Shown: positions 5,298-40,610 of the stretch, in pieces
How the letters are laid out: each line of letters starts with the position of its first letter
Position numbering within the stretch: the stretch's first letter is position 1
NCBI GenBank assembly: GCA_043799385.1
Contig: JAZDNV010000001.1
Coordinates: forward strand, 96,361 to 160,360
Reading direction: 5' to 3'
Source: Candidatus Aenigmatarchaeota archaeon
GTDB lineage: Archaea > Aenigmatarchaeota > Aenigmatarchaeia > GW2011-AR5
Length of the DNA stretch: 64,000 nt
The notes under the pieces: model-generated
Databases searched by the model: none
What the model saw: only the letters and a program-made list of their open reading frames with translations
Told to the model about the DNA's origin: nothing
Made by a program: the position numbers and the translations under genes

Positions 5298-7427
5298 TTA
5301 CTTGATTACCTTTTTCTCGGTTTTTGGCTTGTCGCTCTTCTCAGCTGGCTCGCGTTTCTTCAGCTTGCTTTTATCCAACCAATCCTTCTTTGTCGGGCAG
5401 GTCAGATCAACGCACATGCGGAACGGTCGGCGACCTGGATTACGGACTTCTATTATCGGCGATTTGCACTGATCGCACGTTTTCTCCGTAGACGTTATGA
5501 TTCCTTCACGCGGCGCCGGAGCGCTGAATTTGCATATCCCCTTCTTGAAGTTGCTGCAGCCGATAAAGCGGCAACCCGTGCGCCAGTTCTTATGGACTTT
5601 TAACATTCCGCCGCATTTAGGGCATTTTCCAATCAGGCTCTGCTTGTCCTGTGTTGCAATCACTGCTTCGGTCAATTCCTTGCCTATCTTCGCCTCTTTT
5701 AACTTGAAGCTCTTGCATATCTTTATTATCCTGGTTTTTGCCTCGTCGAGAACTTTCTCCCTCTTTATCTTGCCGTTTTCAACAAGGTCGCATTCTTCCT
5801 CGAAATGCCTTGTCAATTTTTCTGATACAACGTCAGGAACGTTCTTTTCAAGTATGTCTGATAACTGAGAGCCGAGTTCGGTTACTTCGATGCTCTTTCC
5901 TATGAGATAACCACGATTGTACAAAATCTGCAGGATTTGCGCTCGCGTGGCTTTTGTGCCCAATTCCTTAGCCTCCATTTCCTTAAGAACCGAGCCCTGC
6001 GAGAATCTTGGCGGCGGCTGGGTTTCTTTTGCCGTTTGCGAGACGTTCTTTACCTTCAATTTATCGCCGATTTTGATTTCAGGAAGAATGACTTCTTCGC
6101 GTGCTGCATATTTGCCGTATAGCGATAGCCAACCGGGCTCTATCGTCTTCGTACCGTGCAGGAAGAATACAAAACCGTTGACGTCTAAGATTACTTTCTG
6201 GCTCTCTCTCTTCGCAGGGTCGCCGAAGCATGCCAGAAAGCGATGCACTACTAAATCATAAACCTTTCTCTGACGGTCGTCTAACTTTTTCGGCGCGTCG
6301 CCCGTAGGATAGATAGCCGGATGAGCTGGATCGGTTCTGCTGCCTTCTTCTGGTTTTTTATCAACGAGCGTCGATGCTATCTTGAATCGATCTTGTTTTG
6401 CCAGATTGCTCAATATCTTTTTGTAATTTATGTCAGGCGGTAATTTTTCCGATGATGTTCTCGGATAAGATATCAATCCCGCTTGGTAAAGCGATTCAGC
6501 AATGGACATGCCGAACTGCGGCGAGAAACCGAAGAATCGATAGACGTCAGCAAGGAATGAAGTTGTATTATACGGTTTAGGCGGTCTCTGTGACATCACT
6601 TTCTTTTTTATATCCTTGACCAGAGCTTCTTTTGATTTTGCCTTGCTCGTTATCTCGTCAGCCCTGCTCTTGTCCCAGAGCTTTTCTTTTTCATAGAGAG
6701 CCTTGAACGCCTGCTTGCCTATAAGGACTTCAAGCTCTATTTGCCAGAACGGCTCGGGCTTGAATGCAGAAATCTTTTTTTCATGCTTTGTCAGCATGTG
6801 CAGTATTGGGCCCTGGACGCGGCCTGTTGACAATACCCTAAAACGTTTTGCGTGGTTCTTTATCGCATTCGTCAATGCGCGCGTCAGCGAAACGCCCCAC
6901 ATATAATCCAAGTAATGCCGCGTCAATCCCGCCTCGATCTGGCCGAAGTCAAGGCTCTTCGTCATTTTATCATAACTTTCTATGAGCTCTTCTTTTGTCA
7001 TTGTTGAGAACTTCATCCGTTTTGCGTCATTCTTTTTACAGAGAAAACGCAGTATATTATAGCCGATGACCGAGCCCTCTTCGTCGTAGTCGCAGCATAC
7101 TATATAATCCTTGCCGCCTGGAACGATCTTTTCGACAACGTCAAAATATTTCTTTGTAAAGCTCGCAGGACCCGATGCTTTGTAAGAAGGAACCCAATCA
7201 ACGTCGAATATCGGATAGTCCCAGCCCTTTGTAGTTTGTTTTAGCGTGAATAGGTGACCAACTGCTGCGACGATTACGTGCTTTTTGCCCTTCTTCTTGA
7301 ATTCGTAATAGTCGACGCCTTCGTCGCTCTTAGTCGCTTTCAAGCTACCCTTGTCGGCCAATGCTATTGCAATCGTTTTAGCGGCCATTGGTTTTTCTGC
7401 TATCATCACAACGGTCATAACTATCAC
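5298..7427 (-). CDS. topA: DNA topoisomerase I (type IA) with C-terminal zinc-ribbon repeats
   Basis: N-terminal TOPRIM region (MIAEKPMAAKTIAIAL, EGS acidic cluster), active-site region LISYPRTSS with Tyr, three C-terminal CxxC...CxxC Zn ribbons; 709 aa. Confidence 0.9.
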   Translation of the reverse strand: MIVMTVVMIAEKPMAAKTIAIALADKGSLKATKSDEGVDYYEFKKKGKKHVIVAAVGHLFTLKQTTKGWDYPIFDVDWVPSYKASGPASFTKKYFDVVEKIVPGGKDYIVCCDYDEEGSVIGYNILRFLCKKNDAKRMKFSTMTKEELIESYDKMTKSLDFGQIEAGLTRHYLDYMWGVSLTRALTNAIKNHAKRFRVLSTGRVQGPILHMLTKHEKKISAFKPEPFWQIELEVLIGKQAFKALYEKEKLWDKSRADEITSKAKSKEALVKDIKKKVMSQRPPKPYNTTSFLADVYRFFGFSPQFGMSIAESLYQAGLISYPRTSSEKLPPDINYKKILSNLAKQDRFKIASTLVDKKPEEGSRTDPAHPAIYPTGDAPKKLDDRQRKVYDLVVHRFLACFGDPAKRESQKVILDVNGFVFFLHGTKTIEPGWLSLYGKYAAREEVILPEIKIGDKLKVKNVSQTAKETQPPPRFSQGSVLKEMEAKELGTKATRAQILQILYNRGYLIGKSIEVTELGSQLSDILEKNVPDVVSEKLTRHFEEECDLVENGKIKREKVLDEAKTRIIKICKSFKLKEAKIGKELTEAVIATQDKQSLIGKCPKCGGMLKVHKNWRTGCRFIGCSNFKKGICKFSAPAPREGIITSTEKTCDQCKSPIIEVRNPGRRPFRMCVDLTCPTKKDWLDKSKLKKREPAEKSDKPKTEKKVIK

Positions 7428-7439
7428 AGAACTTCTCTT

Positions 7440-7460
7440 ATAATATAGTGGGAATATTTA
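7440..7460 (-). promoter_or_regulatory. candidate archaeal BRE/TATA promoter for topA
   Basis: On the minus strand a TTTAAATATT box sits about 22-30 nt upstream of the topA ATG (7427), consistent with a leaderless or short-leader archaeal transcript. Confidence 0.35.
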
Positions 7461-7471
7461 AAGCTTGACAG

Positions 7472-7562
7472 ATGCCATAAGCTTAAGGGCTATTAACTGT
7501 GGTTAATAGCCCATCGTTGAGGATTAGACTTGCGATTCTAATCCTAGTTAAGCTTATGGCAT
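7472..7562. repeat. 91-nt nested inverted-repeat element: 15-bp outer stem enclosing two perfect hairpins
   Basis: ATGCCATAAGCTTAA (7472-7486) pairs with TTAAGCTTATGGCAT (7548-7562); inside are GGGCTATTAAC-TGTG-GTTAATAGCCC (11-bp stem, 7487-7512) and GGATTAGA-CTTGCGAT-TCTAATCC (8-bp stem, 7521-7544). Intergenic between topA and a secreted-protein gene. Confidence 0.5.
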
Positions 7563-7608
7563 TGCTTGGGCTGATAGAAAAGAATAAAAATAAGACAAAG
7601 AGAAAAAA

Positions 7609-8163
7609 CTAATAAATTCTAGGATTTCTTAGCGTTCTTGGTTGCGGTGTCGATGCTCTCATATTGCTTACGAAACCTCTAGTAAAGTCGTAAACTCCCG
7701 TTTCAACATTACTTGGATTTCTATAGTCTCTTGCAATCATCTGGAGTTCTCTAGGGCCTTTTGGCGTTAGGACCGGTTCGTTGTCTGTTACAATGTTGTA
7801 ATAGAGTGTTGTTATATGCCTTCCGTTTCTGTCGTATAATCTCAAAGAGAAATCCGGAACATCTGGGCAATCCGCGTCGCGAGGTTTTAGTTCATAACGG
7901 CCGTTGAAACCTCTCATTGCGTTCTGAACACCAGTTTCAATTGCACGTCTGCCCTGTGCTTCAGAAAATGCGTTACTATACCTCTCATCTCTACGTACTG
8001 TTGCGTCATCTTTTTTCTGTGTTTTACTATCTTCTGCTGATGGCTGCTGTATCGCTGCAGGTGTTGTGTTATTACTGTTTACTGTAATACAACCGATGCT
8101 ACTGAAAAGGCTAGTTAAAAGAAGTCCTGTAACACCAATCATTGCCTTTGTTTTGTTTTGCAT
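7609..8163 (-). CDS. secreted/lipoprotein-like hypothetical protein (184 aa)
   Basis: Signal peptide MIGVTGLLLTSLFSSIGC with Cys lipobox-like site; hydrophilic mature part; no family recognised. Confidence 0.45.
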   Translation of the reverse strand: MQNKTKAMIGVTGLLLTSLFSSIGCITVNSNNTTPAAIQQPSAEDSKTQKKDDATVRRDERYSNAFSEAQGRRAIETGVQNAMRGFNGRYELKPRDADCPDVPDFSLRLYDRNGRHITTLYYNIVTDNEPVLTPKGPRELQMIARDYRNPSNVETGVYDFTRGFVSNMRASTPQPRTLRNPRIY

Positions 8164-17034: not shown

Positions 17035-17688
17035 TCAGAAGAATTCTTTTTCATCGTTTGCGACAATCATCTGCTTTATCAGGAAGTCCACACCGCCTAC
17101 CTTAGGCATACCATGGCCTGGCAGAAGATAGGACACAGGGTATTTTGCCAATTTCTTTAGCGAGTTGCAAAGCTTGTACTTGCTACCGCCTGGAAAATCG
17201 GTTCTGCCGATGCCGTCTTCAAATAACGTGTCTCCGGATATTAATATCTTCTTTTCTTTTTCATAAAGGCATATCGATCCAGGCGTATGACCAGGAGTCG
17301 ATATCACTTCAAACGTGAAGTTTGCCGTCCTTATCATACTGCCGTTCTTCAATACACGGTCAACGGTAGTGACTCTGGCCACTTCGCCGAACATCTCGGA
17401 TAAAGTATCTATGCCACTTTCCAGCGATTCTTTGTCGTTTTCATGTATTGCAATTTCCGTCTTGAGCCAATCGCGAAATTTTCTGTTCGCGCCAGAATGG
17501 TCGTAGTGGCAATGTGTATTCACAATATATTTGATATTGCTGACATCGCACAATCTTGATATTTCTTCCTTTATTTCCGAAAAGAACAAACCGCTGCCAG
17601 AGTCGACGATGAGTTCGCCATCAATCAGATAAATATTAGAATCATACCCTACTCCGCCCATCATTATGATTCCCTTCAAAATCTGCAT
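17035..17688 (-). CDS. MBL-fold metallo-hydrolase (glyoxalase II-like)
   Basis: HCHYDHSG, TPGHTPGS, ISGDTLF and LLPGHG motifs of the metallo-beta-lactamase superfamily; 217 aa. Confidence 0.75.
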   Translation of the reverse strand: MQILKGIIMMGGVGYDSNIYLIDGELIVDSGSGLFFSEIKEEISRLCDVSNIKYIVNTHCHYDHSGANRKFRDWLKTEIAIHENDKESLESGIDTLSEMFGEVARVTTVDRVLKNGSMIRTANFTFEVISTPGHTPGSICLYEKEKKILISGDTLFEDGIGRTDFPGGSKYKLCNSLKKLAKYPVSYLLPGHGMPKVGGVDFLIKQMIVANDEKEFF

Positions 17689-17710
17689 GATAATACTATT
17701 CCACTAATTT

Positions 17711-18502
17711 TTAAATGCTTTGAATTTCTCTGCCTATTATGTCATGCGCATTGACGGAAAAGAACGAGCCGTTGTTTCTCAAAACCAGCAAATTCCCTTT
17801 TGCTGCCACAACACGGCCAGAAATGCTTATACCATCGCAGACCGAGATGTTTTCCGGGTCAGACAAAACATTTTGCAGTCGATAGAACCGTCTCATGTCG
17901 TAAATCTCAGGTTTTATGAGGTCAAATTTTTTTTCCTTCAGGCTAACCAGTGCCTTTGTTATATTTTCGGTAGCTACGTTCGGGTTGCCAAATAATGTTT
18001 TGTGTTTTTCGCTGCCAAGTATCCTATCAGCGATTGTCAGGTTATTCTTTATCTTTTGCTCTACGCTCCTCGCTTCTCTACCATCACGGATGAACGCTAT
18101 CTTTGCACCGAAATCCGCGCCCTGTTCGACCAGACGCTCTAATATCCTGTGTTCATAGGATATACCAACCTTCAGCAACGAGTCAAAAGCCGCCAGATAG
18201 ATATAGTAATTGTTTTTTTCGCACTCGCTACGTTTTTTTGGGTTTATGCACTCGCCACTGCATCTTATGCACTGGAAGAAGTCGTCATTCACTCGGCAGT
18301 CATCGCAATTCCACCCATGCCTTATCTCCCTGTTGTCCGGGCACGGATGATGCTTGCCATCTTTAAAAAAACCAACGCAGAATTTTTTTCCAAGATTGAT
18401 TGAGACATTTTCGTCGAATAATCGCATCCTACCAAAGTCCTTGCCGTCCTTTAAATTAAAGAAAGGTTCCCAGTTTACCCATTTGTAGCCGGTTATTTGC
18501 AT
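17711..18502 (-). CDS. hypothetical protein with Cys cluster (putative zinc-binding)
   Basis: 263 aa; CPDNREIRHGWNCDDC...CIRCSGEC cluster; no family recognised. Confidence 0.4.
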   Translation of the reverse strand: MQITGYKWVNWEPFFNLKDGKDFGRMRLFDENVSINLGKKFCVGFFKDGKHHPCPDNREIRHGWNCDDCRVNDDFFQCIRCSGECINPKKRSECEKNNYYIYLAAFDSLLKVGISYEHRILERLVEQGADFGAKIAFIRDGREARSVEQKIKNNLTIADRILGSEKHKTLFGNPNVATENITKALVSLKEKKFDLIKPEIYDMRRFYRLQNVLSDPENISVCDGISISGRVVAAKGNLLVLRNNGSFFSVNAHDIIGREIQSI

Positions 18503-19092
18503 ATTCGGTCAAAAGCCATCGTCACGTTTGCTAAAGTTTTTTCATCCATCAAGTCGTTTTTTAGCATTGAAAAAAGGTTTTTTGTCATCATCTCGAATTC
18601 CTTTCTGTACCTGAATTTATATAAGGTTTCCCTGAAAAAATCAGAGGAATAGTTATCAATTCCGTGAAAGCTCAACCAAGGAAGACTCATACCAATGAAA
18701 TCATTGAGTTTTTCTATTCCCTTCCCGTGTTCTGAAAAGATTATGTAGTAATAATAGAACAGCTCGTCTGAGAATTTTTTTGCAATCTTACGGTTCACGA
18801 TTATATCTTCAATGAATTCAGGAACATCCATGAATTTTTTCAAGTTTGCTTTGAGCAGCATTCTCAGAATAATTATTTTTATCGCCTTTTCGTCACAGCT
18901 CTGCACGAACGGGTCTTTATAATCTATCGTGATGGCGGCGTCAAAATCCAAGATTTCTATTTTATTCGTATCTCCCACGGAAAAAACAAGATTTTCATAC
19001 GGGACATCGATGAATTGTATGATTCTGTCAAATAGTTTGAATACGGTTCTTGTCCTGTCATCGGTCTTTTCGTATTTTTTTACAACGTGCAT
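18493..19092 (-). CDS. hypothetical protein (199 aa)
   Basis: ORF overlapping start of previous gene (operon); no recognised motif. Confidence 0.35.
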   Translation of the reverse strand: MHVVKKYEKTDDRTRTVFKLFDRIIQFIDVPYENLVFSVGDTNKIEILDFDAAITIDYKDPFVQSCDEKAIKIIILRMLLKANLKKFMDVPEFIEDIIVNRKIAKKFSDELFYYYYIIFSEHGKGIEKLNDFIGMSLPWLSFHGIDNYSSDFFRETLYKFRYRKEFEMMTKNLFSMLKNDLMDEKTLANVTMAFDRICK

Positions 19093-19114: not shown

Positions 19115-19960
19115 TTAAATTACACCTTTCCACTCCTTTATCGCTTTTTCATAGCGTTCGATATTGCCTATATCGAACCATTGGCCGCTGAACGGGTAAC
19201 CAAAAAGCTTATTCCTCTTGGCGATCTTCGGAAAAACGTCTTTTTCCAGAGACGAGAAGCCGTCCGGGATCATTTTTATGACATCCGGCTCAAGTATGTA
19301 AAATCCCGCGTTGATGAGGTTTGATTCGATTTTCTTCGGTTTTTCCATGAATTCCAGTATGTTAGTTCCGTCTAATTTCACGACGCCGTAATTTCCAGGC
19401 TCTTCAACCGTTGTCAGCGCAAGCGTCGCTAAAGCATCATTATTTTTATGTAGGCGGAACATCTCTTCAATGTTTATATTCTTTAATTCATCGCCATTCG
19501 AAACTATAAACGGTCCATTCAGGTGGTTTTTCGCAAGCTTTATCGGCCCGGCCGTGCCCAATGGTTCGTCTTCTTCAACGTAAGTTATTTTAACGCCGAA
19601 CTTCAAGCCATCGCCGAAATGGTTCCTTATCTTTTCTTTCATGTGGCCTACAGAAAGAATAATGTCGGTTATGCCATACTTCTTCAGCAGGTCGAAGAGA
19701 TGCTCAAGCATGGCCTTACCCTTTATCGGCATCAACGCCTTTGGTATTTCATATGTTATCGGCCTCAACCTTGTTCCTTTACCACCGCAGAGTATTAGCG
19801 CCTTTCTCGGGCAGTTGTCGCCAAAAGCCCGCAATAGAAGCAGCTCAAGCGCATGACTCCTGTTCTTTATTGTGTGGCCATCGACAATTCTGTCGATCTT
19901 CTCAACAAATTCCTTGTCAACCGTTACGCTTATCCGCTCTTTCATAAAATTATCATACAT
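19115..19960 (-). CDS. sugar-1-phosphate nucleotidyltransferase with N-terminal ribbon-helix-helix-like domain
   Basis: N-terminal about 45 aa (RISVTVDKEFVEKIDRIVDGHTIKNRSHALELLLLRAF) with CopG/RHH-like beta-alpha-alpha pattern. Followed by nucleotidyltransferase G-loop ALILCGGKGTRLRPIT and RmlA/ManC-like body. Confidence 0.65.
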   Translation of the reverse strand: MYDNFMKERISVTVDKEFVEKIDRIVDGHTIKNRSHALELLLLRAFGDNCPRKALILCGGKGTRLRPITYEIPKALMPIKGKAMLEHLFDLLKKYGITDIILSVGHMKEKIRNHFGDGLKFGVKITYVEEDEPLGTAGPIKLAKNHLNGPFIVSNGDELKNINIEEMFRLHKNNDALATLALTTVEEPGNYGVVKLDGTNILEFMEKPKKIESNLINAGFYILEPDVIKMIPDGFSSLEKDVFPKIAKRNKLFGYPFSGQWFDIGNIERYEKAIKEWKGVI

Positions 19961-19970
19961 CGTAATACTT

Positions 19971-20795
19971 TTAAATACTCCCCCACTCTTTTATCGCCTT
20001 TTCGTAGCCTTCATTGCTTCCGACGTCGAATATCTTTCCGTCGTGAACGAATCCGGACAACTGGTTTTCTCGTGCCAGCTTCGGGAATAACGTTTCTTCT
20101 ATCAAACCTTTACCGTTGTGGACAAGATTTAAAACATCAGGTTCAAGTATATAGAAGCCCGCGTTTATCAGGCTTGGTCCACTGGTCCTCGGATTTTCTA
20201 TGAATTTTGTTATATGATTGCCCTTCATCGCAGCAACGCCACCCCTAGGATTTTCCGTGAGAACAAGCAGAATCGTAGCAAGCGTTGATTGTTTTTTATG
20301 AAAATTTAGTATTTCGTAAATATCGGGATTCATCAGCGTATCAACGTTCATTGCAATGAAAGTGTCTTTTATATAATCCCTCGCCAGGTAAAGCGGATAG
20401 GCGGTGCCCATTGGTTTTTCCTCAGTGAGATAAGTTATGTTAACGCCAAATTTGCTACCATTACCGAAGTACTCCTTCACCTTTTCGTGCATGCTTCCCA
20501 CTGATAGGAGAATATTCCTTATATCATACCTTCTGAGCATGCTTATCTGGTATTCAAGTATCGGCCGACCGTGAATAGTTATCATCGGCTTCGGTATCTC
20601 ATAGGTCATAGGTCTTAGCCTTGCACCCGTTCCACCGGCAAGAATAAGTGCAGTGTTGATATCGGTTTTGCTCATCGCCCTCAACAAAAGGCTTTCGACT
20701 GCATGGCTCCTGCTCTTTATGTTCCTCTTGTCTATCATCCTGTCTAGCTTCTTCAGTATATCGTTCTTTATCGTTATCGTCACTCTTTCGACCAT
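19971..20795 (-). CDS. sugar-1-phosphate nucleotidyltransferase paralog with N-terminal ribbon-helix-helix-like domain
   Basis: Paralog of the downstream gene: VTITIKNDILKKLDRMIDKRNIKSRSHAVESLLLRAM then ALILAGGTGARLRPMT G-loop; only 10 nt separate the two genes. Confidence 0.65.
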   Translation of the reverse strand: MVERVTITIKNDILKKLDRMIDKRNIKSRSHAVESLLLRAMSKTDINTALILAGGTGARLRPMTYEIPKPMITIHGRPILEYQISMLRRYDIRNILLSVGSMHEKVKEYFGNGSKFGVNITYLTEEKPMGTAYPLYLARDYIKDTFIAMNVDTLMNPDIYEILNFHKKQSTLATILLVLTENPRGGVAAMKGNHITKFIENPRTSGPSLINAGFYILEPDVLNLVHNGKGLIEETLFPKLARENQLSGFVHDGKIFDVGSNEGYEKAIKEWGSI

Positions 20796-20823
20796 TCATA
20801 CACCAAACACACTTTATTATACA

Positions 20824-20885
20824 AAAGTATGAACGAAAAATATTTAAAAAGTATGAATAAGTATGAACATTAATATAAATAGGGT
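20824..20885. promoter_or_regulatory. divergent promoter region with three AAGTATGAA(C/T) direct repeats and TATA box for the heptose operon
   Basis: Repeats at 20825, 20849, 20859 (spacing 24 and 10 nt); TTAATATAAATA about 25 nt upstream of hddA ATG (20895); lies between the divergently transcribed RHH-NTase genes and the heptose/PPP operon. Confidence 0.4.
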
Positions 20886-20894
20886 GTATCAAAA

Positions 20895-21968
20895 ATGATA
20901 ATAAGAAGCCGGGCACCGGTGAGGATATCTTTCGGAGGCGGCGGGACAGACGTGCCGCCGTACTGCGATGAGCATGGCGGCTGCGTTCTATCAGCAACTA
21001 TAAACAAATACTCCTATGCGTCGCTGGAATCCAGGAACGACCAGGAAATCCACATAGAATCAGGCGATTTCCTGAAAAAACTGAGGTTCGGAAGCATAGA
21101 CGAGATGGCATACGACAATGAGTTGGATTTATTGAAGGCTGCGATAAAAAACCTAAACACCACACGAATGGGATTGAACATATTTCTGAGGAGCAGCATC
21201 CCGCCGAAGTCCGGCCTAGGCGGCTCTGCATCATGCTTCGTTGCGCTAATCGGGTTGTTCAACCATATAAGGGCTGATAAGATGACAAATTACGAAATAG
21301 CGGAATTAGCGCACAGGCTGGAGCGCGAGGAATTAAAGATAGCAGGCGGCAAGCAGGACCAGTATGCTGCTGTGTTCGGAGGGATAAACTTTATTGAATT
21401 CGGTGGCAATTGGGTCAGGGTTAATCCTATAACAATGAAGAAGGACCACCTGCTGGAACTGGAGAAGCATCTGGTTCTTGTTTATGTCGGCGACCGGCCA
21501 AAAGAGGACGTTACCAGAGAATACATAACAGGAAAAACGAAGACAGATGACATAATCGGAGACCAGGTCAAATCGGTTCTAGAAAAGAAAGAATCGGTTA
21601 TAGAGGCGCTTGACAGGACCAAAGAAATTGCGTTGGATATGAGGCGTGCGTTCATGATAGGAGATTTGATTGGCTTTGGTGAATTATTGCACAAGGCCTG
21701 GGAGGAGAAGAAGAAGTTTTCAAACATGATATCGAATAGATACATAGATGATCTGTATGCGTTGGCTAGAAAACACGGTGCAATAGGCGGGAAGATTACC
21801 GGTGCAGGTGGCGGCGGTTTCATGTTGTTCTTCTGCGAGCCGAACAAGGAGCAGATCGTTGCAGAGCAGCTTGAAAAGGCCGGCGCAAGGCCGACAAGTT
21901 TCGCGTTTGATTTTGATGGCTTGCAGACATGGGAAGTGGGTTATCTCACCGGTAGGGTGTACAGATGA
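20895..21968 (+). CDS. hddA: GHMP sugar kinase, probable D-glycero-alpha-D-manno-heptose 7-phosphate kinase
   Basis: GHMP motif PPKSGLGGSASCFVAL; N-terminus APVRISFGGGGTD typical of HddA/HldE-kinase-like GHMP kinases; directly upstream of gmhA/gmhB/hddC. Confidence 0.65.
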   Translation: MIIRSRAPVRISFGGGGTDVPPYCDEHGGCVLSATINKYSYASLESRNDQEIHIESGDFLKKLRFGSIDEMAYDNELDLLKAAIKNLNTTRMGLNIFLRSSIPPKSGLGGSASCFVALIGLFNHIRADKMTNYEIAELAHRLEREELKIAGGKQDQYAAVFGGINFIEFGGNWVRVNPITMKKDHLLELEKHLVLVYVGDRPKEDVTREYITGKTKTDDIIGDQVKSVLEKKESVIEALDRTKEIALDMRRAFMIGDLIGFGELLHKAWEEKKKFSNMISNRYIDDLYALARKHGAIGGKITGAGGGGFMLFFCEPNKEQIVAEQLEKAGARPTSFAFDFDGLQTWEVGYLTGRVYR

Positions 21969-22001
21969 GATGAATGGCGATACAATTCAAAACAGCGGTG
22001 T

Positions 22002-22595
22002 TTGAAAATGAAAGACAAAATAAAAGAAGCAATCGATGAGCACAGCAAATTAATAGATGAGATTGTAAGCGATTCTGAACTAATGAAAAAGATAGAAATC
22101 ATAACAAAAAGAATAATTGAATCTTACAAGATGGGCGGCAAGCTCGTTATTTTCGGCAACGGCGGCTCAGCAAGCGACGCGCAGCATATCGTCGCGGAGT
22201 TGATAAACAAGTTCAAGCTGGACAGACCGATGCTCAACGCACTGGCGCTGAACGTCAATACGTCTGTCATAACCGCTATTGCAAACGACTCTTCATACGA
22301 TGATGTTTTTTCAAAACAGATAGAATATCTGGTTGATTATAAGGACGTTGTTATCGGTATAAGCACCAGCGGAAAGTCAAGGAGCGTAATAAAGGCAATG
22401 CAGACGGCGAGAAATAAGGGCGCGCTTACAGTCGGCTTTACAGGAAGGACAGGCGGACCAATGAAGGATTATGTTGACATATTATTGAACATGCCATCCG
22501 ATTCCACGCCGAGAATACAGGAGGCGCACATACTGGCTGGGCACATAATCTGTGAGCTGATAGAGCAGGAATTATTCGGTAAGAAATATGAATAG
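22002..22595 (+). CDS. gmhA: sedoheptulose-7-phosphate isomerase (SIS domain)
   Basis: GKLVIFGNGGSASDAQHIVAEL phosphosugar-binding SIS signature, 197 aa. Confidence 0.8.
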   Translation: MKMKDKIKEAIDEHSKLIDEIVSDSELMKKIEIITKRIIESYKMGGKLVIFGNGGSASDAQHIVAELINKFKLDRPMLNALALNVNTSVITAIANDSSYDDVFSKQIEYLVDYKDVVIGISTSGKSRSVIKAMQTARNKGALTVGFTGRTGGPMKDYVDILLNMPSDSTPRIQEAHILAGHIICELIEQELFGKKYE

Positions 22596-23163
22596 AGCTG
22601 TATTCCTAGACAGGGACGGCGTAATTATCCGTCAGATGGAGGTAGTTTGCAAGCCAGAGCAGCTAAAAATACTGAAGGATTCAGGCAAGGCCATAAAGTT
22701 ACTGAACAATCTTGGGTTTCGTGTTGTGGTTGTCACGAATCAGCCGCAGGTTGCCAAGAACCAATGCACGGAAAGAGATGTCAGAAAAGTCAACGAATCG
22801 CTAAGGGCGAAGCTAATGAAGAGCGGTGCAAAGGTGGATGCTATATATTTCTGCCCTCATCATCCCGAAAGGCAGCATAGAGACATAATAGAAAAATGCA
22901 GAAAGTATAGGATAGCGTGTGAGTGCAGGAAACCCGATATCGGGATGCTTTTAAAGGCAAAGAAGAAATTTAACATTGATATACATTCATCTTTTATTGT
23001 TGGCGACCGCACAGTCGATGTACAGACAGGAAAGAATGCTGGTTGCAAGACAATATTAGTGAAAACAGGCTATGCCGGCAGCGACAAGAAATATGATGCG
23101 AAACCGGATTTCATATGCAGAGATTTGTATCGTGCAGCAAAGCTTATTGAGGGATTCGTATGA
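22588..23163 (+). CDS. gmhB: D,D-heptose 1,7-bisphosphate phosphatase (HAD-IIIA)
   Basis: HAD motif I FLDRDGVI, motif VVVTNQ, GDR motif (IVGDRTVD), Cys pattern CxHxxxxxC typical of GmhB zinc site; 191 aa. Confidence 0.75.
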   Translation: MNRAVFLDRDGVIIRQMEVVCKPEQLKILKDSGKAIKLLNNLGFRVVVVTNQPQVAKNQCTERDVRKVNESLRAKLMKSGAKVDAIYFCPHHPERQHRDIIEKCRKYRIACECRKPDIGMLLKAKKKFNIDIHSSFIVGDRTVDVQTGKNAGCKTILVKTGYAGSDKKYDAKPDFICRDLYRAAKLIEGFV

Positions 23164-24644
23164 AGGCAGTTATCATGGCCGGCGGGGTTGGAGAACGTCT
23201 GAGGCCGTTAACAGACGAAATGCCGAAGCCTATGCTGAAAATTGCAGGAAAACCCATACTTCAACACCAGATAGAGCTGCTGAAACGTTATGGAATAGAT
23301 GAAATAGTCATATGTGGTTCGCATCTTTTTGAAAAGATTAAGGAGTACTTTGGCGACGGCTCAGCTTTCGATGTAAGGATAGAATACTTGAGGGATGAAC
23401 AACTGGGAACAGGCGGCGCGCTGAAGAATGCCGAGAAATTTTTAGACGAAACATTTATTCTTCTCTATGGCGATACGATGATGAGGATGAATCTAAAACG
23501 ATTGATAGATTTCCACAAAAAAAGCAACGCAACGGTAACAATAACGCTGCATGAAACTGACCATCCGCATGACAGCGATTTGGTAAAAATAGATGAAAAT
23601 GGCATGGTCGTCCGCATATTCAACAAGCCGAATACGGGTATGCCTTCAAGACTAGGTAAATCATCGGTCTTTATCGTCGAACCTTCTGTGCTCAGTGATA
23701 TACCTGAAACAAGAAACGATTTTGAAAAGGATGTAATATCAAAATTAGTACCGTCAGGAAAGGTTTACGGATACTGCACAAGTGAATTCATAAAAGACAT
23801 CGGAACAACCGATAGGTACAAAAAGGTCAATGAGATATTCAGTAAGGAAAAAGAATTGAAAGTTATTGCTAAGGAGATAAGAAAACACATAATTAAAATG
23901 ACAACTTGTGCCAAATCTGGTCATCCGGGCGGCTCGCTATCAGCAGCTGATATAATAACGGCATTATATTTCTATAAAATGAGATATCGTCCGGATGAGC
24001 CCAACTGGAACGAGCGCGATAGATTCATTCTATCAAAAGGACACGCATGCCCAGTTCTGTATGCGGCTCTTGCAATTGCCGGATTTTTTCTGGCTGATGA
24101 ATTGATGACATCAAGAAAAATTAATTCAAGGATACAGGGTCACCCGTCAATGATTCTTCCGGGAATAGATGCATGTTCGGGTTCTCTCGGCCAGGGATTA
24201 TCTGTTGCGAACGGCATCGCTTTATCAGCTAGGATTGATAAAAAAGACTACAACGTGTATATTTTACTTGGCGACGGTGAGTTGCAGGAAGGCCAGATAT
24301 GGGAGGCTGCGATGACATCGTCCCAATACAAAATTAATAACCTTACCGCTATAGTTGATCGTAATGGATTACAGATTGATGGCAATACTGAAGACGTAAA
24401 GGGGTTGAATCCGTTGGCAGAAAAGTGGAGATCATTTGGTTGGCACGTTATTGAGATAGACGGTCATGACTTTCCACAGCTGTTGTACGCATTGGATATG
24501 AAGAGCGATAGACCAAAGGTAATAATTGCAAACACAATTAAGGGCAAGGGTGTCTGCTCAATGGAAAATAATATAGAATTCCATGGAAAGGTTTTGTGTG
24601 ATGAAGAATGCCAAAGAGCGATGAAAGAATTAGAATCGCAATAG
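23160..24644 (+). CDS. fusion protein: N-terminal heptose-1-phosphate nucleotidyltransferase (HddC-like) + C-terminal transketolase N-terminal (TPP-binding) half
   Basis: Residues about 1-230: G-loop IMAGGVGERLRPLT, NTP-transferase body. Residues about 240-494: transketolase motifs SGHPGGSLSAADIITALYF and GSLGQGLSVANG...LLGDGELQEGQIWEA. Single uninterrupted 494-aa ORF. Confidence 0.75.
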   Translation: MKAVIMAGGVGERLRPLTDEMPKPMLKIAGKPILQHQIELLKRYGIDEIVICGSHLFEKIKEYFGDGSAFDVRIEYLRDEQLGTGGALKNAEKFLDETFILLYGDTMMRMNLKRLIDFHKKSNATVTITLHETDHPHDSDLVKIDENGMVVRIFNKPNTGMPSRLGKSSVFIVEPSVLSDIPETRNDFEKDVISKLVPSGKVYGYCTSEFIKDIGTTDRYKKVNEIFSKEKELKVIAKEIRKHIIKMTTCAKSGHPGGSLSAADIITALYFYKMRYRPDEPNWNERDRFILSKGHACPVLYAALAIAGFFLADELMTSRKINSRIQGHPSMILPGIDACSGSLGQGLSVANGIALSARIDKKDYNVYILLGDGELQEGQIWEAAMTSSQYKINNLTAIVDRNGLQIDGNTEDVKGLNPLAEKWRSFGWHVIEIDGHDFPQLLYALDMKSDRPKVIIANTIKGKGVCSMENNIEFHGKVLCDEECQRAMKELESQ

Positions 24645-29574: not shown

Positions 29575-30846
29575 ATGAAGATATCTATAATAGGCTCTGG
29601 TTATGTCGGCCTGTCCACAGGACTAGGACTTGCGTCACTCGGTTATGAAATCATATGCGTTGATGTAGACAGAGGCAAAGTCGATTCGATAAATAACGGA
29701 AAACTGCCGATTTATGAGGACGGGATGCAGGAAATACTCAACAAAGCTCTTAAGAAAAAGACATTCAAAGCTACAACAGACTTTGCGTATGCTATAGAAA
29801 ATTCAGAAGTAAGCTTTGTAGCAGTTGGCACGCCATTCAAGGACGGTCTTTATTTGAAATATGTTATGGACGCTGTAACCGATATATCAAAAGCATTGAA
29901 AAGCAAGAAAGGATACCATCTAGTTGTCATGAAGTCAACGGTTCTGCCAGGAACGACAGAGAGCATCATACCAATACTTGAAAAATCCTCGAAAAAGCGC
30001 GTTGGAAAAGATATTGGTCTGTGCATGAATCCTGAATTCCTGAGAGAAGGCAAAGCCCTTGATGATTTCCTGAAGCCAGACAGGATTGTAATAGGCGAAT
30101 TTGACAAGAAATCAGGAGATGCTCTGGAAAAACTTTACAAGGGCGTCAATGCGCCTGTTTTCAGAACCAACCTTAAGACGGCGGAGATGATAAAATATGC
30201 GGCGAATACATTCCTTGCATCTAAAATCTCTCTTATAAATGAAATAGGCAATATCTGCAAAAAGCTAGGTATAGATACGTATGATGTTGCAAAAGGAATC
30301 GGTTATGACAAGAGAATCTCGCCGCAATTTCTGGAATCAGGTATAGGTTTTGGCGGTTCATGCTTCAAAAAGGATTTGTCTGCACTGGCAAAAAAAGCAA
30401 AGAGTCTCGGAGTCGATACGAGAATAATAGATGCCACGCTCTGCGTAAATGAGAACCAGCCGCTAAAAATAACTGAGTTTTTGAAGGACGTCAAGAACAA
30501 GAAAGTGACGATACTCGGCCTTGCCTTCAAGCCGGGAACAGACGATATACGCGAATCGCCTGCGATAAGGATAATAAGTGAGCTTTTGAGGAAAGGAGCG
30601 TGCGTTTCTGCGTATGACCCGAAGGCAATGGACAACGTTAAGAGGGTATTCCCGAACATAACCTATTGTCGCAGCGCAAAAGAGGCGCTGGAAAACGCTG
30701 ATGCCTGCGTAATTTTGACTGAATGGGAGGAGTTTAAAAAACTTTCCGAGAAGGAATTTTCAGTGATGAAAAATAAAGTGATAGTAGAAGGCAGGAAAAC
30801 GTTGAATCCTAAAATAGTTAAAAAATTTGATGGTGTCTGCTGGTGA
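29575..30846 (+). CDS. nucleotide-sugar 6-dehydrogenase (UDP-glucose/GDP-mannose/UDP-ManNAc dehydrogenase family)
   Basis: N-terminal NAD fold MKISIIGSGYVGLSTGL, catalytic Cys region GFGGSCFKKD; 423 aa. Confidence 0.8.
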   Translation: MKISIIGSGYVGLSTGLGLASLGYEIICVDVDRGKVDSINNGKLPIYEDGMQEILNKALKKKTFKATTDFAYAIENSEVSFVAVGTPFKDGLYLKYVMDAVTDISKALKSKKGYHLVVMKSTVLPGTTESIIPILEKSSKKRVGKDIGLCMNPEFLREGKALDDFLKPDRIVIGEFDKKSGDALEKLYKGVNAPVFRTNLKTAEMIKYAANTFLASKISLINEIGNICKKLGIDTYDVAKGIGYDKRISPQFLESGIGFGGSCFKKDLSALAKKAKSLGVDTRIIDATLCVNENQPLKITEFLKDVKNKKVTILGLAFKPGTDDIRESPAIRIISELLRKGACVSAYDPKAMDNVKRVFPNITYCRSAKEALENADACVILTEWEEFKKLSEKEFSVMKNKVIVEGRKTLNPKIVKKFDGVCW

Positions 30847-30850
30847 TGAT

Positions 30851-31669
30851 ATGAAAGCGATAATACTTGCTGCCGGACGCGGAACAAGGCTGCGCCCATT
30901 AACATACGGCATACCTAAACCGCTTCTTCCGGTAAAAGGAACGCCGATGATAGACTGGGTCATACGAAGCATTTCCAGTGAAAAGATAGAAGAGATAATT
31001 GTTGGCACGTCAGGAACAATTGGAGAAAACATGGAAGAGCGGGTGCTATCGCATATTCACGGCATCTGCATCGATTCCTATCTTAAGAACCAGACTTATG
31101 ATTGCAAAATAAGAACGGTCCCTACTTTACAGCGCGAGACAGGCGGTGATTTGAGGTATATTCTTGAAGAAATCAACATGAAGAAAGGAAAGATAATAGT
31201 TGTTTATGGCGACAATCTCACGTCATTCAACATTGACAAACTTCTCGATTATCATGAAAAATGCAAAAACGAGCTTGGCATCGCAGGCACAGTAGTCTTG
31301 TTCGAATCACCTGAGAGCGATGTGAACCGCTTCGGGATAGCGAAATTAAAAAACGTGAAAGGCTTTGATTTGGTAACATCTTTCATAGAAAAGCCGTCGT
31401 TGCAAGAAGCACCGTCACGATACGCGAGTGCCGGTTATTACATTCTTGAAGTGGACGAGGTATTCGATATGCTTCCGCATGAAAAGGTAAAGGTTGAGCA
31501 TTCAGTATTCCCAGTCTTGGCAAGCCAGAACAAACTTGCTGGTTATATAACAAAGCTTCCTTACTGGATTGATATAAGCACCTTGGAGGCATACATTACG
31601 GCGAACAAGATGGCTCATGACGGTCTTATAATCCCACCATCGCTTCCGAATAAAGGAAACAACATATGA
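30851..31669 (+). CDS. sugar-1-phosphate nucleotidyltransferase
   Basis: G-loop AIILAAGRGTRLRPLT; probable start at MKAIIL (30851) rather than 30827. Confidence 0.7.
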   Translation: MKAIILAAGRGTRLRPLTYGIPKPLLPVKGTPMIDWVIRSISSEKIEEIIVGTSGTIGENMEERVLSHIHGICIDSYLKNQTYDCKIRTVPTLQRETGGDLRYILEEINMKKGKIIVVYGDNLTSFNIDKLLDYHEKCKNELGIAGTVVLFESPESDVNRFGIAKLKNVKGFDLVTSFIEKPSLQEAPSRYASAGYYILEVDEVFDMLPHEKVKVEHSVFPVLASQNKLAGYITKLPYWIDISTLEAYITANKMAHDGLIIPPSLPNKGNNI

Positions 31670-39189: not shown

Positions 39190-40610
39190 AGATGAGAGTT
39201 CTGGTAACGGATTTGCCGTGGAAGGGAAAGAAATACGCTGGCCGCGCCGGCATGCGATGGGCGCATACGTCTGACAAACAACCGGTAATAAGTTTCAGGC
39301 CATTCCCGTTTTATCTGGCGTGCACTTCCGCAGTGCTGGAAAGAGCTGGTCATGATGTATTGGTCGTAGATGCGCTGGCTGAAAATTTATCAGAGGATGA
39401 ATATTTCAAGCGCATCGCAGGGTTTTCTCCTGATTTCATAGTCGCAGAAATACATACGCCGTCATACAATAACGACCGAACTTACATGAAAAAATTAAAA
39501 GAACTCACCGGCGCGAAGATGATATTCGCAGGCCCGCAGCCGACGGCATTGCCAGAGCAGGTCCTGAAAGAGAATAAAGGAGTAGCAGACTTTGCCCTTG
39601 TTTCTGAGTATGAATTTCTGGCGTTGATGGCAGTAGAAGGCAAAGCAAAAAAAGGCATAGTCAAGTCAAAAAAGCTTGTTGATATCAATGACATACCGTG
39701 GCCAGCCAGGCACATGTTTAAGATGAATCTTTACAACGAGGTCTTCTGCAGGAACTATCCGAATATACAGATGATGGCTTCACGGGGCTGCCCGTTGCGT
39801 TGCAGCTACTGCAACATATTCACGATGAACAACTTCCAGAGGATTCATAGAAAACGAGACGTTGGTAACGTTGCGGATGAGATGCAGTTTTGTATTGATG
39901 AATACAAGCCGAAGGAGCTCTATCTGGATGACGATAATATTGATATATCGCCGCAATGGCTAAGCGACCTTCTCGATGAGAAAATAAAAAGAATCGGCGA
40001 CTTTCCATTCACCTGCATGGGTCATGTGAATGTAAAAGAAGAGCTCTTGGAGAAGATGAAAAAAGCCGGTTGTGTTGGCATAAAGCTTGGAATAGAATCT
40101 TCGAATAATTATGTATTGAAAAGGCTTGGCAAAGGCATGACAAACGAGATGGCTGTGCGTACAATAAAGAAGTGCAAGGAACTTGGCATAAAGACGCATC
40201 TCACGTTCTGCATAGGCCTGCCGGGTGACACAGAGCAGACGGTAAGTGATACGATAGATTTTGCAATGAAATATGGCGACAGCTTTCAGATAAGCACAGC
40301 CGCGCCGTTTCCAGCAACACCACTATGGGACGAGGCGGTGAAAAACAATTGGATAAAATTCAAATCCTGGGACAGTTTTGATGGCATGAAGGACGCGATA
40401 ATAAACTATCCGAACCTTTCAAATAAATGCCTGCAGAACATCGCAATGAATGCTCAGGCGATGAGTTACAGGAAGGCGGTGAAGAGCGGTGAATGGAAAA
40501 AATACGTTAAAATGATATTCCAGGAAAGAGGGATAACCGGAGTAACAAAGATGGCTTTCATCCGCGGGCCGGGTATGATCTACAATCTTTTGAAATCTAA
40601 ACGCCGATGA
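39186..40610 (+). CDS. cobalamin (B12)-binding radical SAM enzyme (class B rSAM) - paralog A
   Basis: N-terminal B12-binding Rossmann-like domain; radical SAM Cys triad CPLRCSYC; TIM-barrel rSAM core; ATGA overlap with the upstream GT2. Confidence 0.75.
   Translation: MKMRVLVTDLPWKGKKYAGRAGMRWAHTSDKQPVISFRPFPFYLACTSAVLERAGHDVLVVDALAENLSEDEYFKRIAGFSPDFIVAEIHTPSYNNDRTYMKKLKELTGAKMIFAGPQPTALPEQVLKENKGVADFALVSEYEFLALMAVEGKAKKGIVKSKKLVDINDIPWPARHMFKMNLYNEVFCRNYPNIQMMASRGCPLRCSYCNIFTMNNFQRIHRKRDVGNVADEMQFCIDEYKPKELYLDDDNIDISPQWLSDLLDEKIKRIGDFPFTCMGHVNVKEELLEKMKKAGCVGIKLGIESSNNYVLKRLGKGMTNEMAVRTIKKCKELGIKTHLTFCIGLPGDTEQTVSDTIDFAMKYGDSFQISTAAPFPATPLWDEAVKNNWIKFKSWDSFDGMKDAIINYPNLSNKCLQNIAMNAQAMSYRKAVKSGEWKKYVKMIFQERGITGVTKMAFIRGPGMIYNLLKSKRR

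Follow-up and report, generated by a model that had tools for sequence, protein, structure and literature searches.

PutA carries an N-terminal ribbon-helix-helix (RHH) domain on a proline dehydrogenase/P5C dehydrogenase and, as a "trigger enzyme," represses its own divergent operon. In NadR and BirA, a DNA-binding head is attached to an enzyme that transfers a nucleotidyl group or adenylates, and repression depends on the ligand state of that enzyme. NikR (1q5v, 2hza, 2bj1) joins an N-terminal RHH domain to a C-terminal domain that binds a ligand and oligomerises. Here, we describe two adjacent genes, A and B, in a 64,000-nucleotide stretch of a Candidatus Aenigmatarchaeota archaeon genome (contig JAZDNV010000001.1, positions 96,361 to 160,360; hereafter, the window), each of which encodes a predicted RHH head fused to a sugar nucleotidyltransferase (NTase)-like domain. 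We propose, with a probability of roughly 0.68, that A and B are self-regulating enzyme-repressors, that is, one-component regulators built on a sugar-1-phosphate nucleotidyltransferase and equipped with a NikR-type RHH head.

Among described systems, NikR gave the best sequence and structure match to the head, with which it shares the R-x-T-x-T strand, the GTATGA half-site, and the general layout of an RHH joined to a ligand-binding domain. The C-terminal domain of NikR is an ACT-like, nickel-binding tetramerisation domain, whereas A and B carry NTP_transferase, and the ligand of the fusion proteins would be a nucleotide or sugar rather than a metal. Likewise, the GTATGA half-sites of E. coli NikR form an inverted repeat, GTATGA-N16-TCATAC (PMC7055735), whereas the boxes upstream of the fusion genes are direct repeats with a 10-bp period. 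Because both the C-terminal domain and the operator arrangement differ, neither A nor B is a NikR.

The other models also match in part. Like PutA, A and B have an RHH N-terminal to an enzyme and are encoded beside a promoter, their own or a divergent one, with a predicted operator. However, PutA is a flavoenzyme with redox-driven membrane association and a different operator sequence, and it belongs to Proteobacteria rather than to DPANN archaea or bacteria of the candidate phyla radiation (CPR); NadR and BirA differ in their helix-turn-helix heads and in their unrelated enzyme folds and pathways. On the enzyme side, the C-terminal 230 residues of A and B share fold and catalytic motifs with GDP-mannose pyrophosphorylase and other short NTases (VTC1, GMPPB, MurU, RmlA, and HddC). 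Judged from matches in the Protein Data Bank (PDB), however, none of the characterised or crystallised NTases carries an RHH domain, and the C-terminal left-handed beta-helix of the eukaryotic GMPPs is missing in A and B. In the GMPPA/GMPPB pair, the damaged paralog GMPPA senses the product GDP-mannose and regulates GMPPB allosterically at the protein level. A and B similarly comprise one intact paralog (A) and one with a damaged active site (B), but their proposed output is transcription through the RHH.

Architecture of the fusion proteins

A and B are tandem minus-strand paralogs with 47% identity across 275 residues, and both consist of a 45-residue RHH domain, a 5-residue linker, and a GDP-mannose-pyrophosphorylase-like NTase domain (Table 1). 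NCBI annotates both only as "sugar phosphate nucleotidyltransferase," and B is 100% identical to MFH0832234.1 from a Candidatus Aenigmatarchaeota (DPANN) metagenome-assembled genome (MAG). The reading frame of A is open to 19960, and its NCBI record (MFH0832233.1) begins at the sixth codon, M6 (ATG at 19945). Because M6 aligns with B and with all homologs and matches the NCBI start, the true start of A is almost certainly M6 rather than 19960. Therefore, A spans 19115-19945, and the spacer between B and A is 25 bp.

When searched singly, the two heads matched Pfam RHH_1 (PF01402) at residues 9-42 of A (E = 0.029, 14.8 bits) and residues 4-37 of B (E = 4.9e-4, 20.4 bits). More than 110 homologs spanned 99-100% of B, the first 45 residues included, and the head consensus was M-x-E-R-V-T-I-T-I-K-x-D-x-L-x-K-I-D-x-M-V-D-G-x-x-I-R-N-R-S-H-A-I-E-x-L-L. 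A family profile made from a 49-sequence alignment of the N-terminal 45 residues matched E. coli NikR (1q5v) with E = 2.8e-7 over NikR residues 2-43, its whole RHH domain, and it also matched Pyrococcus horikoshii NikR (6e-4) and CopG (0.01). AlphaFold2 monomer models of B (mean pLDDT of 93 at full length and 90 for the N-terminal domain alone) had residues 1-10 extended, helices at 11-20 and 29-42/43, and the NTase from residue 48. With the N-terminal model as query, Foldseek returned mostly RHH proteins, among them NikR (probability 0.98, 36% identity), CopG on DNA (0.97), MazE, Arc, CdbA, SvtR, and ParD, although with weak E-values because the domain has only 45 residues. At strand positions R4, T6, and T8, conservation in the family is 90% or higher, and the residues are identical to R3, T5, and T7 of NikR, which Schreiter et al. 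reportedly found in 2006 to touch DNA bases.

By family profile, modelled topology, and Foldseek matches alike, the N-terminal segment is a predicted RHH domain, as the original prediction had held from the DNA letters alone. With its strand-helix-helix course and the NTase from residue 48, it is not just an extended first strand of the Rossmann-like NTase fold. The same prediction had described the pair as tandem sugar nucleotidyltransferase paralogs in which the catalytic domain follows directly after a head of ~45 residues, and this description was borne out: both open reading frames (ORFs) are present, and Pfam NTP_transferase (PF00483) begins at residue 53 in A (E = 4e-47) and at residue 49 in B (E = 5e-36). 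No PDB match to the family covered the RHH, as matches began at profile position 41 or later and nearly all at 44-51.

A family in DPANN archaea and CPR bacteria

A search of the 45-residue profile against 1.84 billion representative proteins, clustered at 50% identity, returned 885 clusters at E ≤ 0.001, of which 198 reached E ≤ 1e-10. In the clusters that we inspected, an "ILAGG..." NTase-like domain came after the RHH, or the sequences were fragments of this arrangement. A degenerate DNA pattern for T-x5-L-x3-D-x3-D-x5-[NS]-R-[ST]-H-A-x-E, used on a genome collection, matched at least 119 species genomes. An RHH-NTase fusion was encoded in 119 of 119 matched loci (at least 119 in all; individual loci are given below as L003, L116, and so on), mostly with a length of 260-290 residues, and the shorter fusions came from short or truncated loci. 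By record label, 56 of the matches listed are archaeal (DPANN) and 63 bacterial (almost all Patescibacteria/CPR). The archaeal carriers are Aenigmatarchaeota, Woesearchaeota, Nanoarchaeota, Micrarchaeota, and Altiarchaeota.

These loci leave next to no weight for a gene-calling artefact, in which a small RHH gene would have been read into a separate NTase gene. The ORF with the motif runs on into the NTase in 119 of 119 listed loci, AlphaFold2 is confident across the junction, and the NCBI, JGI, and ENA gene calls agree. The RHH-nucleotidyltransferase is instead a large undescribed family of which we found no published account; our literature search returned no description of an RHH joined to a sugar nucleotidyltransferase or of such RHH regulators in CPR or DPANN. 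The earlier judgment that the architecture is unusual thus holds in one respect, as it is uncharacterised, and yet the database searches showed that DPANN and CPR genomes commonly encode it. The unusual feature is that one family with one operator spans bacteria and archaea, a family that CPR and DPANN presumably came to share by horizontal transfer.

A tandem pair is not the general layout of the family: elsewhere among the listed loci, only L030 (uncultured archaeon LFW-252_1) has two RHH-NTase genes side by side (5913-6683 and 7002-7859, plus strand), the upstream copy encoding 256 residues with a degenerate NTase domain. Some third-party "TPA_asm" MAGs are labelled uncultured Gammaproteobacteria, Pseudomonadales, or Methanosarcinales, and their fusion proteins group with those of CPR/DPANN. 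Placeholder-like labels of this kind were found for L004, L014, L031, L035, L048, L049, L064, L067, L094, and L107; L011, L038, L077, L078, and others. In L004 and L067, the protein N-terminus is very similar to that of the Roizmanbacteria protein in L032, and we treated the labels as unreliable.

A conserved tandem repeat upstream of the fusion genes

Prompted by TTCATAC repeats in the spacer between B and the divergent hddA-like gene, we compared k-mer counts in the 150 bp preceding each fusion gene with those of the whole locus, without a preset motif. The most enriched upstream hexamer was GTATGA/TCATAC, with 107 copies observed vs. 11 expected and a presence in 67 of 114 loci. Among adjacent box pairs, 29 of 44 were direct repeats exactly 10 bp apart. 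Perfect GTATGA-N4-GTATGA tandems occurred 39 times in 869 kb compared to an estimated ~0.1 by chance, and 28 of them lay within 200 bp upstream of a fusion gene. When one mismatch was allowed, 46 of 116 upstream regions contained the tandem vs. 0 of 580 shuffles; with up to two mismatches, these counts were 67 of 116 and 16 of 580. Box density was 5.75/kb upstream of fusion genes and 1.2/kb upstream of other genes in the same loci. The resulting consensus of the predicted family operator is ttGTATGAtAAaGTATGAta.

The box also varied with the residues of the RHH strand. Loci with an R-T-T strand (n = 102) averaged 1.12 perfect boxes upstream, whereas the GTATGA box was absent upstream in nine of nine loci in which R4 is replaced by K, Q, or H. 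The K-T-T loci L003 and L050 instead have CGTATA-type boxes, as strict 10-bp repeats in L003 only and at about that spacing in L050. In the K-S-T loci L008 and L116, TTATCCTAC occurs twice (GTAGGATAA on the other strand), exactly in L116 and imperfectly in L008. Although the numbers are small, direct readout by the RHH strand would predict just such a change of the box with the strand residues, and the K-T-T and K-S-T members look like a natural specificity swap.

The predicted operators are placed over or near promoters. In CPR bacteria, 20 of 21 lay in the orientation of the gene, and several loci had a -35-like TTGAC(A) upstream, which puts the boxes within the spacer and on top of a -10-like TATGAT or TAGTAT. 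Boxes over the spacer and -10 element are in the classic position of a repressor. In DPANN archaea, 21 of 24 operators had the opposite orientation. The tandem of several A-type archaeal orthologs ends ~11-13 bp upstream of the TATA box, beside the presumed B recognition element (BRE), while in B-type orthologs with short intergenic regions (L010, L065, and L119) it sits downstream of a TATA-like element and before the ATG. Given these positions in CPR bacteria and in the B type, autorepression is the simplest reading there.

RHH domains are obligate dimers, and many NTases act as dimers or tetramers. The head could therefore be only an oligomerisation or stability domain with no role in DNA binding, an alternative that had been raised when the fusion was first noticed. 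We consider this extremely unlikely, as the strand positions conserved at 90% or above are those of NikR and a matching DNA element, covarying with them, is conserved upstream of the genes. The same observations favour the DNA-binding half of the original prediction that the fusion acts as a transcription regulator, since a tandem of NikR-type half-sites precedes the gene in both archaea and bacteria.

A second alternative accepts the repeats and assigns them elsewhere, either as core promoter elements or as the sites of another factor such as a NikR homolog. GTATGA is indeed the NikR half-site, and the bacterial TATGAT resembles a -10 hexamer. Nevertheless, this alternative seems very unlikely to us. 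The same 10-bp tandem is found in archaea with TATA/BRE promoters, there mostly in the opposite orientation, and it is specific to the upstream regions of fusion genes when compared to other promoters of the same loci. The box sequence shifts with the strand residues of the fusion, and the operators of NikR are inverted repeats with a 16-bp separation rather than direct repeats. Moreover, a hidden Markov model (HMM) of the family RHH detected no other protein with this domain encoded in the 64-kb window.

Some perfect tandems precede genes of other kinds. One such gene encodes a GlpX-type fructose-1,6-bisphosphatase (L094, 6555-7547; bacterial, with an unreliable "Pseudomonadales" label), and another encodes a weakly NUDIX-like protein (L019, 2796-3670; Moraniibacteriota) that scored 20.7 bits vs. 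a Pfam cut-off of 21.1. The regulon may therefore reach beyond autoregulation to hexose-phosphate supply.

Predicted operators in the window and the divergent heptose operon

Table 1. Positions of the fusion genes, their domains, the predicted operator boxes, and the divergent candidate target operon within the window
Feature	Position	Strand	Content or basis
Gene A	19115..19945	-	RHH-NTase fusion, 276 residues from M6; ORF, Pfam, NCBI record
A, RHH domain	19817..19945	-	Residues 1-43 from M6; strand triple R-S-T; family RHH HMM (E = 3e-21), alignment
A, nucleotidyltransferase domain	19118..19804	-	GGKGTRLRP, PK, GTAG, NGD, EKP, FDIG
Gene B	19971..20795	-	RHH-NTase fusion, 274 residues; ORF, NCBI identity, AlphaFold2
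B, RHH domain	20667..20795	-	Residues 1-43; strand triple R-T-T, identical to NikR R3/T5/T7
B, nucleotidyltransferase domain	19974..20654	-	GGTGARLRP, PK, NVD, FDVG kept; ENP for EKP, GTAY for GTAG
Predicted main operator	20851..20866	+	GTATGAATAAGTATGA; two GTATGA direct repeats, 10-bp period, 0 mismatches
Third box	20827..20832	+	GTATGA(A); B/hddA intergenic region
Fourth box	20796..20801	-	GTATGA; abuts B start codon
Possible second operator	19953..19968	-	GTATTACGATGTATGA; 1 mismatch; 25-bp spacer from B stop to A M6
Divergent candidate target operon	20895..24644	+	Pfam, NCBIfam; continues to 27401 with pentose-phosphate genes
HddA-like GHMP kinase	20895-21968	+	NCBIfam, E = 2e-76
GmhA-like SIS isomerase	22002-22595	+	Pfam/NCBIfam
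GmhB-like HAD phosphatase	22588-23163	+	Pfam/NCBIfam
NTase fused to transketolase N-terminal (thiamine-diphosphate-binding) half	23160-24644	+	Pfam

The predicted main operator agrees with the consensus of the whole family and is the only perfect tandem in the window, and it lies inside the 99-bp spacer between B (start at 20795, minus strand) and the hddA-like gene (start at 20895, plus strand). Four boxes fall within these 99 bp, which has a Poisson probability of ~2e-6 given the box frequency of the window itself. Tandems with at most one mismatch numbered three in the window, and the two besides the possible second operator at 19953-19968 lie inside genes. Candidates at 39452, 42198, 44520, 25401, and 30269 were rejected as members of a regulon, each having one or two mismatches and lying inside a gene. 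Single GTATGA hexamers occurred 52 times in the window compared to 27.8 in dinucleotide shuffles (about twofold). The excess extends beyond the operator region; most copies are inside genes, and some are overlapping stop/start junctions (for example, 23158-23163). A scan of the window region for sigma-70 promoters and terminators gave match counts at the level of shuffles, and the DNA is archaeal.

Across the spacer from B, the candidate target operon encodes HddA-, GmhA-, and GmhB-like enzymes and an NTase fused to half a transketolase, a fusion that is odd in itself. Beyond it, up to 27401, follow RpiB-like, Rpe-like, transketolase C-half, and transaldolase-like genes, judged from N-terminal sequences in the ORF list. 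Together, these genes appear to specify a nucleotide-heptose pathway with its own supply of sedoheptulose-7-phosphate through a non-oxidative pentose-phosphate module. The arrangement was not confined to the window, as a B-type fusion divergent from hddA-gmhA-gmhB(-NTase), with tandem boxes between, was also present in L010, L016, L026, L065, and L119. We rejected the heptose operon as the general partner of the family, since GHMP kinase neighbours were found in seven loci and GmhA/GmhB in three. As judged from gene neighbourhoods, the link to the heptose operon is specific to the B-type Aenigmatarchaeota clade.

Catalytic state of the nucleotidyltransferase domains

The AlphaFold2 model of B superposed on the GDP-mannose pyrophosphorylases VTC1 and GMPPB (~32% identity) as well as on MurU, RmlA, and HddC. 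Compared to active pyrophosphorylases, the root-mean-square deviation (rmsd) was 2.2-2.9 Å, and the query-normalised TM-score was 0.69-0.76 (VTC1/GMPPB). Both proteins fell below every NCBIfam equivalog cut-off. An identity as HddC was rejected because NF049965 scored 126 bits for A and 97 bits for B vs. a cut-off of 300 bits; furthermore, an NTase gene of its own is present in the heptose operon (23160-24644), and GmhB-NTase fusions are found at orthologous loci.

To compare catalytic states, we scored five signature residues, namely the Arg of the G-loop, the Lys of P-K, the Asp of G-D, the Lys of E-K-P, and the Asp of F-D. The set is complete in A. B retains four of them, with both aspartates kept and the EKP lysine replaced by Asn (in 2 of 119 close homologs), and its GTAG glycine is replaced by Tyr (in 1 of 119). 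We take the EKP lysine to be the residue that binds the sugar phosphate, corresponding to K163 in RmlA and K195 in E. coli ADP-glucose pyrophosphorylase, and its replacement means that B may be a poor enzyme. Across the family, 24 of 106 full-length members have all five signature residues, and ~30% lack the G-loop Arg as well as the P-K Lys. Operator presence was unrelated to catalytic completeness, with similar operator frequencies in intact and non-intact members. The G-loop is degenerate in many members (e.g., ILAGGKPKTKTPPPL), and a shorter subgroup of ~205-220 residues is without most of the catalytic motifs; both groups are likely pseudo-enzyme sensors.

Of the 18 archaeal members with all five residues, 14 adjoin a phosphomannomutase/phosphoglucomutase (PMM/PGM) gene. 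The closest orthologs of A (63-68% identical) are among them, and the orthologs of A beside PMM/PGM are 56-68% identical to it. A PMM/PGM gene next to an NTase gene forms the classic operon leading from sugar-6-phosphate through sugar-1-phosphate to a nucleoside diphosphate (NDP)-sugar. These neighbours therefore indicate a real biosynthetic role for the intact archaeal members. From its residues and relatives, A probably functions as a nucleotidyltransferase for hexose-1-phosphate (GDP-mannose or NDP-glucose type), and B is probably mainly a sensor. The family as a whole probably ranges from enzyme-regulators resembling A to pseudo-enzyme-sensor regulators, toward which B leans.

It could be argued that A and B are instead pure transcription factors, in which an NTase-like pseudo-enzyme binds a nucleotide sugar for signalling only, without a biosynthetic role for either protein. 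This would fit the small share of members with all five signature residues, the frequent loss of the G-loop Arg and P-K Lys, and the ENP and GTAY motifs of B. It would also fit the presence in the window of at least two other NTases without an RHH (23160-24644 and 30827-31669), as well as a structural match to GMPPA (7d72), a catalytically inactive GDP-mannose-binding paralog. However, A retains every signature residue and is 56-68% identical to orthologs beside PMM/PGM, and the model of B superposes on active pyrophosphorylases. We therefore consider a purely regulatory role for both proteins unlikely and prefer the reading as self-regulating enzyme-repressors.

Proposed mechanism

As enzyme-repressors, A and B would each dimerise through the RHH, and the head would read GTATGA through its R-x-T/S-x-T strand. 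Two dimers, probably joined by their NTase domains, would fill two boxes at 10-bp spacing, both on the same face of the double helix. When substrate or the NDP-sugar product fills the NTase pocket, the geometry across the 5-residue linker, and hence the affinity for DNA, would change, in analogy with nickel in NikR and with the sensing of product by the inactive paralog GMPPA. With boxes in the promoter region that B shares with the heptose operon and a weaker copy before A, the two proteins are predicted to control their own synthesis and the heptose pathway. We infer that control by ligand acts through the NTase pocket and that the sign of the regulation is repression. Sequence analysis establishes the fold, the family, the conserved operator, its placement over promoters, and the covariation of protein and DNA.

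Several points weigh against this proposal. Pfam RHH_1 alone scored under its cut-off of 20.5 bits for both proteins, so the signal from single sequences is marginal. A perfect box is missing from ~35% of upstream regions, and ~42% have no tandem even at two mismatches. The covariation comes from few loci, with nine variants and clear alternative repeats in about four. A position near the BRE, as in the A type, can mean activation in archaea rather than repression, and part of the enrichment in CPR could reflect promoter sequence given the -10-like TATGAT within the bacterial box. In the window itself, the promoter elements of the B/hddA intergenic region are not unambiguously assignable. Finally, we infer that the proteins bind DNA and respond to ligands, as we do their oligomeric state and enzyme activity.

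Extending the model to the whole family is, in our estimation, an even bet. One regulator family would then span CPR bacteria and DPANN archaea with the same NikR-like head and operator, using an NTase, active or pseudo-enzyme, as the sensor and tying glycan-precursor genes to the nucleotide-sugar pool. CPR and DPANN represent a large share of microbial diversity, almost none of it cultured, and have few recognisable regulators. Several hundred clusters now annotated as "sugar phosphate nucleotidyltransferase" would gain a concrete, if proposed, regulatory role, for which the analysis yields a predicted operator, predicted DNA-contact residues, and first predicted targets. These targets are the fusion genes themselves, the Aenigmatarchaeota NDP-heptose operon, and the GlpX fructose-bisphosphatase in one CPR genome.

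The family could also be useful for comparison. Its range from intact to degenerate members offers a natural series for the evolution of enzymes into sensors, and the use of the same head and operator with bacterial sigma-type and archaeal TATA/BRE promoters is a rare and useful opportunity to compare repression. Cell-surface glycans are likely central to the attachment of episymbionts to their hosts, and a regulator of precursor supply thus matters. If the proposal is true, expression of sugar-precursor and surface-glycan genes would be tied to the nucleotide-sugar pool in ultra-small symbiotic cells with very few regulators.

Neighbouring genes

Glycosyltransferase-, UDP-glucose-dehydrogenase-, and epimerase-like N-termini in the ORF list suggest a glycan-biosynthesis island of ~35 kb at 27398-63763. 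The NTase at 30827-31669 (Pfam), the fourth in the window and without an RHH, lies within these coordinates. Downstream of the RHH-NTase genes, positions 17035-19092 (minus strand) encode a metallo-beta-lactamase (MBL)-fold protein, a DUF2797 protein, and a 199-residue protein without a Pfam match. Homologs of these three proteins adjoin the B-type gene in L016 (2778-4843) and L026 (5569-7999), both from Aenigmatarchaeota-like genomes, with a different order and orientation in L026.

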